Positions 24,387 through 25,123 of a stretch of DNA of 27,497 nt are shown here, piece after piece. Below the pieces are notes generated by a model. That model saw nothing but the letters and a program-made list of their open reading frames with translations, was not told where the DNA came from and ran no database searches. Position 1 is the stretch's first letter; each line of letters begins with the position of its first letter. A program made the translations under genes and the position numbers. The DNA is taken from positions 7,521-35,017 of the forward strand of contig CAYMDR010000002.1 in assembly GCA_964389195.1 (NCBI GenBank), given 5' to 3'. This stretch comes from an uncultured Candidatus Peribacteria bacterium (GTDB taxonomy: Bacteria > Patescibacteriota > Gracilibacteria > UBA1369).

Positions 24387-24755
24387 GTAGACAACAGTAG
24401 ACATTTTTTTAGAATGTCTATAGTCTGTCTATGTTTGTCCACTTTGTGTCTATAGATATGCAATAGACATCGCCTAAAGTAATATTTATGTATAATATTG
24501 ATAGAAAAACAGCTAGTAGATTGTTAAAAGTTACCATGCGTACAGTAGACAGGTATATTGTGGCAAAAAAACTGTCTATAGAGAAAAGAGATGGAAGGAT
24601 ATGGCTTAATAAAAAGGAAATTTTAAAAATACGCCAAATTGGGCAAGTAGACAGACTAGACACCAATATAGACGTGTCTACACGTTCAGTGTCTATAGAC
24701 AATTCGTCGTCTCTTCCAGTGGACATGTCTATAGACGGTGTCCAGTTTGTGTCTA
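24387..24755. repeat. Array of TGTCTA/TAGACA hexamers
   Basis: 15 exact copies (24388, 24398, 24415, 24426, 24447, 24464, 24546, 24573, 24648, 24657, 24675, 24690, 24696, 24726, 24750) plus 5 one-mismatch copies (24436, 24669, 24720, 24732, 24739) in ~370 bp. Confidence 0.9.
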
Positions 24756-25123
24756 CTGCGAAGTCTGAAAAACCTCATTCAAACAGCCAAACGGAGGAAC
24801 GGGTATATCGGAAACTTTTTGAAGAGTTGCAGCAGGAATTAAAAATAAAGCAGGAACGCTTGGAAGGGGCAAATTATCGAGTTGGTCACCTGGAAGCATT
24901 AGTAAAAGATTCGATTCCACGCCTAGATTATCAAAGGGCATTGCAACAAGGGAAAATAATACAGGAGGAGTTGCAGCAACACCTTGATGAAGCTCGGGGA
25001 AAAGGGGAGGCTCTCCATGCAAAACTAAAAGAGGAAAAATACGATAAAAGAATTTATCTTATTCTACTTTTTCTCATTCTGCTTTTGCAGCCCCTGTGGC
25101 TCTTGCTCTCAATAAGTAACTAG
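24488..25123 (+). CDS. MerR/excisionase-like HTH + coiled coil + C-terminal TM protein
   Basis: IDRKTASRLLKVTMRTVDRYIVAKKL HTH, coiled coil LFEELQQELKIKQERLE...LHAKLKEE, C-terminal IYLILLFLILLLQPLWLLLSI. Confidence 0.85.
   Translation: MYNIDRKTASRLLKVTMRTVDRYIVAKKLSIEKRDGRIWLNKKEILKIRQIGQVDRLDTNIDVSTRSVSIDNSSSLPVDMSIDGVQFVSTAKSEKPHSNSQTEERVYRKLFEELQQELKIKQERLEGANYRVGHLEALVKDSIPRLDYQRALQQGKIIQEELQQHLDEARGKGEALHAKLKEEKYDKRIYLILLFLILLLQPLWLLLSISN

Follow-up and report, generated by a model that had tools for sequence, protein, structure and literature searches.

The window referred to throughout is the whole stretch of DNA analyzed here, 27.5 kb from an uncultured Candidatus Peribacteria bacterium. 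Between positions 24388 and 24755 it carries an array of the word RTAGACA/TGTCTAY in both orientations, with 15 exact copies of the hexamer TAGACA/TGTCTA and at least five copies with one mismatch. The array begins upstream of a gene on the forward strand (24488–25123) and runs into it. This gene encodes a 211 aa protein with a winged helix-turn-helix (wHTH), a disordered linker, two long helices and a C-terminal transmembrane (TM) segment. We show that the array is real, unique in its genome, deeply conserved together with the gene, and under selection at the level of the DNA.

The hexamer array and the protein encoded within it

Nineteen exact copies of the hexamer are present in the window, and the four outside the array are singletons (3021, 6830, 10990, and 20681). 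Shuffled versions of the window contained 8.3 ± 2.5 copies, and none of 100 shuffles reached 19. The one-mismatch copies, found in both orientations, include TGTCCA at 24436, 24720 (TGGACA on the forward strand), and 24739, TAGACG at 24669 and 24732, and the palindrome partners at 24453 and 24579. A preliminary description, made from the letters of the window, had counted 15 exact and 5 near copies in ≈370 bp and had listed the same four isolated copies and no others. Both counts hold, while its rough chance expectation of 0.25 copies was too high. The source assembly (G000; 1.46 Mb in 221 contigs, 40% GC, 92% complete) contains 273 copies, or 0.18 per kb, and thus ≈0.07 copies are expected in 368 bp.

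No other 400 bp window of G000 has more than three copies, which makes the array the sole cluster in the genome and answers the concern, raised in the same description, that the motif might be equally dense genome-wide. A motif-blind scan for 7-mers also ranked the locus first among the short-repeat arrays of G000. The hexamer is rare in this genome overall (27% of the expectation from composition, rank 16 among the rarest of 4096). Specific genome-wide avoidance was considered and rejected, since the rarity is accounted for by sub-words (Markov-4 ratio 0.98). Other short-repeat clusters in G000 (C126:601, C9:13901, C22:10901, and C63:3901) consist of AAAGCTT, 6–7 times per 500 bp, at three of the sites and of CACCAAG, 8 times, at one.

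The non-coding part of the array (24388–24469) has copies at 24388 (−), 24398 (−), 24415 (+), 24426 (+), 24436 (+, TGTCCA), 24447 (+), and 24464 (−). As had been pointed out before, the same-orientation copies follow each other at steps of 10–11 bp (24388/24398 and 24415/24426/24436/24447), and successive sites therefore face the same side of the DNA helix. Across the homologous loci described below, the commonest adjacent spacings are 11 bp for two forward copies (++) and 10 or 11 bp for two reverse copies (−−). Inside the gene, two copies fall within the HTH codons (24546, −; 24573, +), and all copies in the linker region (24648–24755) are in codon phase 1. The linker part includes the perfect 12 bp palindrome TGTCTATAGACA (24690–24701), already noticed in the preliminary description, which encodes VSIDN and occurs once in the whole G000 genome. 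Versions of it with one or two mismatches are located at 24415, 24447, 24573, and 24726.

In a consensus scan, the only promoter candidates at the locus overlap the array. One of them (24388–24415, forward strand) uses an array word as its −35 element, with TAGACA and TAGAAT separated by 16 bp and 10/12 consensus matches. The sequencing runs containing the locus are DNA runs, with no RNA run among them. In several metagenomes, the short-read assemblies (Logan contigs) are interrupted within the array (window positions 24385–24451 and 24644–24717), and automated assemblies may therefore often truncate or miss the locus.

Inverted copies could also act in RNA or single-stranded DNA, by folding the 5′ transcript into hairpins that control translation or stability. 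The segment 24405–24765 does fold at −98.3 kcal/mol, compared with −76.1 ± 5.1 kcal/mol for shuffles (z = −4.35), but a low folding energy is what inverted repeats yield as a by-product. Furthermore, the same-orientation blocks at 10–11 bp steps have no pairing partner, the array lies wholly 60–500 bp upstream of the start codon in many lineages, and it is the word itself that is conserved, not pairing with compensatory changes. A role at the level of RNA structure is very improbable in our judgment.

The protein was modeled with AlphaFold2 on the basis of 39 homologs. Residues 1–53 (24488–24646) are predicted with a pLDDT above 90 as a strand, two helices, a β-hairpin wing and a final helix (E2-5, H6-13, H17-25, E31-34, E37-41, and H42-53). 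The recognition helix carries the motif RTxDRY, in which R18, T19, D21, and R22 are invariant and Y23 is nearly so. The linker, residues 56–98 (24653–24781), has a pLDDT below 50 and is predicted to be disordered; its codons for VD, LD, ID, VS, MS, and SID spell the array. Two long helices follow, 100–142 and 146–210. The first of these (24785–24913) is the most conserved helix (YKKLFEEL...ERLEGANYRVGQLEA), contains the invariant stretch LEGANYRVGQLE, and probably serves oligomerization or partner binding.

The TM segment, residues 191–209 (25058–25114), has conserved Q-P-L-W residues, of which Q201 and P202 are invariant, and is preceded by basic residues. The C-terminal 19–20 residues are uniformly hydrophobic, with a Kyte-Doolittle (KD) value of 2.70 over 19 residues. 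Such a segment, with a KD of at least 1.96 and ending at most 8 residues from the C-terminus, was found in 71/71 relatives, and the protein therefore ends in a tail-anchor TM and not in an amphipathic helix. The true TM tail proposed in the preliminary description is thus present in every family member examined, and the predicted structure agrees with the HTH/coiled-coil/TM architecture given there. Confidence in the prediction is high for the fold class as well as for the TM anchor.

Foldseek searches of the N-terminal domain against the PDB gave the RacA–DNA complex (5i44) as the best match, together with GlnR, mycobacteriophage Xis (4j2n), BldC–DNA (6ama/6amk), and the DNA-binding domain (DBD) of pSK1 Par with its centromere (8csh). 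These matches, MerR-family DBDs included, have probabilities of 0.95–1.0 and target-normalized TM-scores (TMt) of 0.55–0.76. The Xis structure superposes with an rmsd of 1.1 Å, 6amk has a TMt of 0.76, and 8csh has a TMt of 0.71 with an rmsd of 2.1 Å and 26% identity. The likeness to RacA and pSK1 Par that had been proposed from the letters is hence borne out by fold, and residues 1–53 have the predicted features of a MerR/Xis-type winged HTH.

Sequence profiles were less telling. The window protein itself has no Pfam match at E ≤ 0.01; among the 39 aligned relatives, HTH_17 (PF12728) matches 33 (best 6e-6) and MerR matches 27. Precomputed PF12728 marks are also present on several homologs. A family-profile sequence search of the PDB returned chance matches only, and a search of NCBIfam returned nothing.

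Conservation of the array and selection on the DNA word

The gene is present in 143/151 genomes of the order, and in 118/124 of the high-quality ones, and is thus a core, lineage-specific gene of the Peribacteria/Peregrinibacteria order. In a sample of 301 genomes from the phylum, full-length matches are limited to this order and two genomes of the same class. Hundreds of metagenomic relatives were also found, labeled, where a label is given, as Peregrinibacteria, Peribacteria, or Gracilibacteria. With the helix-TM half alone as the query, 164 representative clusters were retrieved from 1.84 billion proteins. Almost all are ≈200–250 aa long and have the module at the C-terminus, so this is one family with one architecture. 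Relatives of the protein on plasmids and phages were looked for, and none were found.

We collected 70 homologous loci and counted copies from −500 to +329 around the gene. In the first 30 loci, with few exceptions, no hexamer is more frequent near the start of the gene than TAGACA. At least nine copies of TNGACA/CGGACA are present at 56/70 loci, whose own flanks have ≈1.8 per kb, and two more loci (family f4) have arrays of GAGACA/AAGACA. The conserved cluster comprises 15–30 copies of one word over 370–630 bp. This association between array and gene spans protein identities of 25–55%, at least ten families (designated by f numbers), and changing neighbors.

The copies are arranged in two ways. 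In the main part of f1, f17, and f15 the array is both upstream and intragenic, with fixed copy positions at +58 (in the recognition-helix codons), at +85, and at 150–270 in the linker. In a subset of f1, as well as in f2, f3, and f13, it is upstream only, from −60 to −500. The preliminary description had asked whether homologs carry arrays upstream and in the linker, and such arrays are indeed present in homologs.

The GACA core is constant, while the preceding dinucleotide varies by lineage: TA in most, TC at loci L006, L007, and L070, TG at L031, CG in f13, and RA in f4. In f13 the array unit is a 10 bp palindrome, TGTCCGGACA, present in 6 copies at L064. The covariation of motif and recognition helix that had been anticipated was not seen, since RTxDRY is invariant and only the dinucleotide before GACA varies. 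Wing residues that might confer specificity (GRIW, NRIW, GRTW, and R[SN]VW) were tried as covariation candidates and set aside because of too few independent lineages. The invariant GACA core does, however, parallel the invariant RTxDRY helix, and this points to the wHTH as the putative binder.

Selection on the word can be seen in non-coding DNA. In 14 alignments of related upstream regions (60–98% identity), hexamer columns differ at 52/696 positions (7.5%) and spacers at 600/2147 (27.9%), i.e., the hexamers diverge 3.7-fold more slowly. The pairs are phylogenetically dependent and the alignments anchor on the repeats, so that a p-value should not be taken literally, but the contrast is still large. 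Strains in a pond metagenome have C in place of the T of the window at 24451 and 24457, and the two substitutions change TGTCTA-TAGATA into TGTCCA-TAGACA. The exact half-site is thereby moved from left to right within one palindrome and the copy number is unchanged, although this is anecdotal.

The coding part is likewise constrained, as 253/304 intragenic copies are in codon phase 1. We compared codon pairs at all 69 other loci, without selection, with those in the flanking open reading frames (ORFs). VD is spelled GTAGAC in 52% of cases in the gene and 11% in the flanking ORFs, and ID is spelled ATAGAC in 46% vs. 9%. The corresponding values are 34% vs. 4% for VS as GTGTCT and 44% vs. 7% for SI as TCTATA. 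Similarly, the V/L/I-D-R of the recognition helix is spelled NT[ACG]GACA at 29/35 loci with a linker array but only at 5/28 loci without one. A linker rich in VD/SID is found only where the array enters the gene, whereas upstream-only lineages have an ordinary disordered linker without VD/SID; the peptide motif hence results from the DNA word and not vice versa. Codon bias, linker comparison, and the divergence of hexamers and spacers all agree with the earlier suggestion that DNA rather than protein is selected.

The same data bear on the origin of the repeat. MSID occurs twice in many linkers, as might be expected if a selected SID/VD peptide repeat had caused the DNA repeat, and HTH_17 is the excisionase family, as would suit an att/Xis remnant of a mobile element. 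Seven copies are non-coding, however, codon choice is fixed and not residues alone, and the linker motif vanishes where the array is upstream only. A mobile origin sits badly with a core chromosomal gene in stable synteny that has no nearby integrase and no phage or plasmid relatives. Both origins are contradicted by these observations, and we consider them extremely improbable.

Whatever the function, this is a clear case of dual coding, in which a disordered linker carries 9–16 copies of a putative DNA-binding word. The sister lineages with upstream-only arrays provide a natural control for the constraint on synonymous codons.

Possible roles of the array and its protein

The explanation we favor, and hold to be somewhat probable, is that the protein encoded inside the array uses it as its cognate binding platform, for autorepression and membrane tethering. 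Each MerR/Xis-type wHTH would read one 7 bp word, R-TAGACA with the core GACA, and the words would be presented as direct repeats phased at 10–11 bp and as inverted pairs. The long helices would join monomers, and the 45-residue flexible linker would let them reach neighboring words. The resulting multi-protein complex would extend over the promoter and 270 bp into the gene. Its occupancy would block transcription, giving a steep negative autoregulation, and would hold a single chromosomal site at the cytoplasmic membrane via the tail anchor.

We thus infer that the protein binds the array, represses its own gene, and tethers the locus to the membrane. The nearest structural relatives coat short repeats (BldC and Xis) or centromere-like repeats (RacA and pSK1 Par), which by analogy points to binding. 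Binding would be expected to shut down transcription, since the array spans both the promoter candidates and the gene's first 270 bp, and as the protein is predicted to be membrane-anchored, binding would also bring the locus to the membrane. If so, one 211 aa protein and ≈400 bp of DNA make up a candidate minimal DNA-membrane tether that can easily be synthesized, and that bears on chromosome organization and partition in the ultra-small uncultured bacteria of the Candidate Phyla Radiation (CPR).

Alternatively, the array may be an operator only. The protein's job would then lie in its conserved helix/TM module, e.g., in division or in envelope biogenesis with neighboring DUF881 genes, while HTH and array would provide a cooperative self-repression that sets copy number, with tethering as a side effect without function. 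Two DUF881 genes do lie next to the gene in the window, on the reverse strand and convergent with it (25134–25769, Pfam 8.6e-24; 25766–26509, Pfam 1.5e-32; overlapping by 4 bp), as the preliminary description had it. Such a pair adjoins the gene at 49/71 loci, no part of the protein is more conserved than the helix-TM module, and the promoter candidates are covered by the array. Families whose arrays are weak or absent also retain the protein, its HTH intact, and the locus is not at a skew switch (see below).

The DUF881 neighbors are common but are absent in f3, f4, and f6. As arrays persist in f3 and f4 without an adjacent DUF881 gene, the array is tied to the HTH gene and not to DUF881. Furthermore, 15–30 sites over 370–630 bp far exceed the usual operators and resemble centromeres or nucleation sites, the conservation of the HTH in lineages that lack an array implies that the protein has DNA targets beyond its own promoter, and the nearest structural relatives, RacA and Par, are DNA-positioning proteins. 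We regard a purely operator role as possible but doubtful.

A complex prediction for the helix-TM half with both DUF881 proteins gave a score of 0.00, which is evidence neither way, and the DUF881 literature contained nothing informative. The other neighbors are genes for an SLH protein, a SpoU methylase, and a PAP2 protein. The SLH-domain gene (23611–24279, reverse strand) is divergent and shares its intergenic region with the array, and is a neighbor only within f1. Farther away, the window has a GC-rich island at 10000–13000, with up to 56% GC in 2 kb windows compared with ≈40% around it, and with overlapping ORFs on both strands at 11260–12074.

Several observations weigh against the binding platform and tether that we favor. 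In families f6, f9, and f19, copies at the gene are few or absent, yet the proteins are well conserved and retain an intact RTxDRY. The proposal that the protein binds its own locus thus agrees with the arrays at most loci and fails to cover these three families, so that own-locus binding is not the whole function and the protein must have another activity, possibly a looser DNA binding elsewhere. The array could even be merely a regulatory add-on. A permanently coated gene could not be expressed, and occupancy must therefore be dynamic. No partner NTPase (ParA, ParM, or TubZ) is encoded adjacent to the gene. Finally, in five closed genomes from four families, dnaA is located 0.38–0.45 genome lengths from the gene, i.e., nearly opposite, and no skew discontinuity was found at the locus at a resolution of 2–10 kb in genomes G001 and G080. 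These positions do not support an origin-proximal centromere role, though such a role is conceivable.

Two small clusters of words were observed away from the gene. The closed genome G064 has a mini-array of five same-orientation TNGACA words at 10–12 bp steps, 50 kb from the main locus (L147:2025–2073; G064:C1:782624–782672). This mini-array forms part of the sequence coding for the lipoprotein-like signal peptide of a 331 aa ORF, just downstream of a 618 aa ORF. In the f6 genome G131, four TNGACA-type words occur in ≈40 bp of intergenic DNA (L148:1086–1130; G131:C1, about 999.6 kb), 166 kb from the array-less HTH gene. Chance may explain this cluster, or a binding site may have moved there; it hints at DNA binding away from the gene but proves nothing.

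The position of the locus is also relevant to a role in replication, with the array as an iteron-like origin or a terminus/fork-trap and the protein as a membrane-bound initiator or terminator. A study from 2016 described short repeats at the skew-defined origin of Candidatus Peribacter riflensis, where the origin is not evident from genes, and its text gives no repeat sequences (PMC4736985). The position of dnaA nearly opposite the locus in the five closed genomes would suit such a role, as would a shift in GC-skew level ≈100 kb from the gene in G001 and G064. The search for DnaA-box clusters in G000, which found none with more than three boxes per 600 bp, counts on both sides. The array is half coding, and neither a skew switch nor a DnaA-box cluster is present at the locus; the features of an iteron-type origin are thus missing and a replication element is unlikely. 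In addition, the word matches the DnaA box at only 6/9 positions and differs at the conserved C6. Taken together, we rate this role as quite improbable.

The skew patterns of the four closed relatives sampled (G001, G080, G064, and G036) were atypical. In two of them, G080 and G036, the skew is strongly negative (−0.2 to −0.45) in every 20 kb sample around a 1.0 Mb circle (G080, L092–L111 and L130–L145; G036, L170–L189). There is no change of sign, and one strand is C-rich throughout. An always-negative skew has been published as an oddity of some Microgenomates, while Peregrinibacteria were stated to have normal curves (PMC7143001).

Canonical partition genes were also considered. The ParB_N domain was not found in G000, nor in genomes of f1 (0/13) and f17 (0/12). 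Across the order, 18/101 genomes were positive, mostly through ORFs of ≈360–500 aa, which suggests that most genomes of the order lack a canonical chromosomal ParB. A typical chromosomal ParB has ≈280–300 aa. Complementarity between the presence of ParB and that of the array was examined and gave no clean pattern.

By analogy with the proposals made for RocS and pSK1 Par, we tentatively suggest that the tether may help to position or segregate the chromosome. It would be bolder still in kind to see gene and array as the centromere of Peribacteria, a one-protein, TM-bolted unique site that replaces ParABS and has its binding sites written in linker codons; this too is possible, and we put it forward with reserve. 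If true, it would be a modern instance of the membrane-attachment model of Jacob, Brenner, and Cuzin in a lineage with reduced genomes.

Comparison with known systems

In the ParR/parC and TubR/tubC systems, phased repeats of ≈10–11 bp straddle the promoter of the binder's operon, and the centromere doubles as an autoregulatory operator. The loci described here share this layout, since at 56–58/70 of them short repeats in helical phase cover or precede the promoter candidates of the putative binder gene. ParR/parC and TubR/tubC need a cytomotive NTPase (ParM or TubZ) encoded alongside, unlike the present gene, which has none adjacent. A partner NTPase is not required in pSK1-type partition. 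The ParR and TubR binders are ribbon-helix-helix (RHH) proteins or other wHTH proteins and have no membrane anchors.

BldC and phage Xis share both the fold and the target layout, i.e., short direct repeats about one helical turn apart. They are, however, soluble single-domain proteins without coiled coil or membrane anchor, and their targets are the promoters of other genes or att sites. RacA, from Bacillus subtilis sporulation, combines a wHTH with a coiled coil, a design that the present protein is predicted to share, and anchors chromosomal sites to a membrane-associated structure, but it has no membrane segment and docks on DivIVA. The ram sites of RacA are GC-rich 14 bp inverted repeats spread across the origin region, and not one cluster at its own gene.

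pSK1 Par also consists of a wHTH and a coiled coil, and its DBD–centromere structure (8csh) is among the best fold matches. It is plasmid-borne, carries DUF536, and has a C-terminal amphipathic helix, whereas the array described here is chromosomal, ≈2–4 times larger than the pSK1 centromere, and runs into coding sequence. Look-alikes found with a protein language model include DUF536 proteins, which we treat as a lead only. No DUF536 (PF04394) match was found for the window protein, and in 39 family members searched at E ≤ 1 the domain is not one of the 25 families that match most often.

RocS of Streptococcus pneumoniae has a similar overall design. According to a study of RocS (PMC11500499), it is a chromosomal protein with an N-terminal MerR-type wHTH, a central coiled coil, and a C-terminal membrane element, and has been proposed as a positioning system made of one protein. 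The present protein is likewise chromosomal, with a predicted wHTH, long helices that may form a coiled coil, and a predicted TM segment. The same source describes RocS, and by sequence pSK1 Par, as ending in a membrane-binding amphipathic helix, and both are proposed DNA-membrane tethers. The earlier statement that the known analogs lack a TM tail is therefore right as regards a true TM, but these two do have a membrane helix. In RocS the helix is MinD-like and needs oligomerization, whereas the present protein has a hydrophobic tail anchor. RocS also carries DUF536 with three key glutamines, a domain that was not detected in this family. In the portion of that study drawn on here, a dense array over the rocS gene is not mentioned (PMC11500499). 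RocS is from Bacillota and the present protein from Patescibacteria, with no sequence relationship between them.

Judged by sequence, the family is hence not a member of the RocS/pSK1 Par group, as it lacks DUF536 and has a predicted TM segment in place of the MinD-like amphipathic helix of DUF536 proteins. It differs from RocS and Par in its true TM, its dense chromosomal array at its own gene, the extension of the array into linker codons, and its restriction to one CPR order. As the idea of a single-protein tether has already been published for RocS and pSK1 Par, the novelty is confined to the TM version. With the system described here, this idea would come to include anchoring by a true transmembrane segment and a chromosomal site that is both defined and unique.

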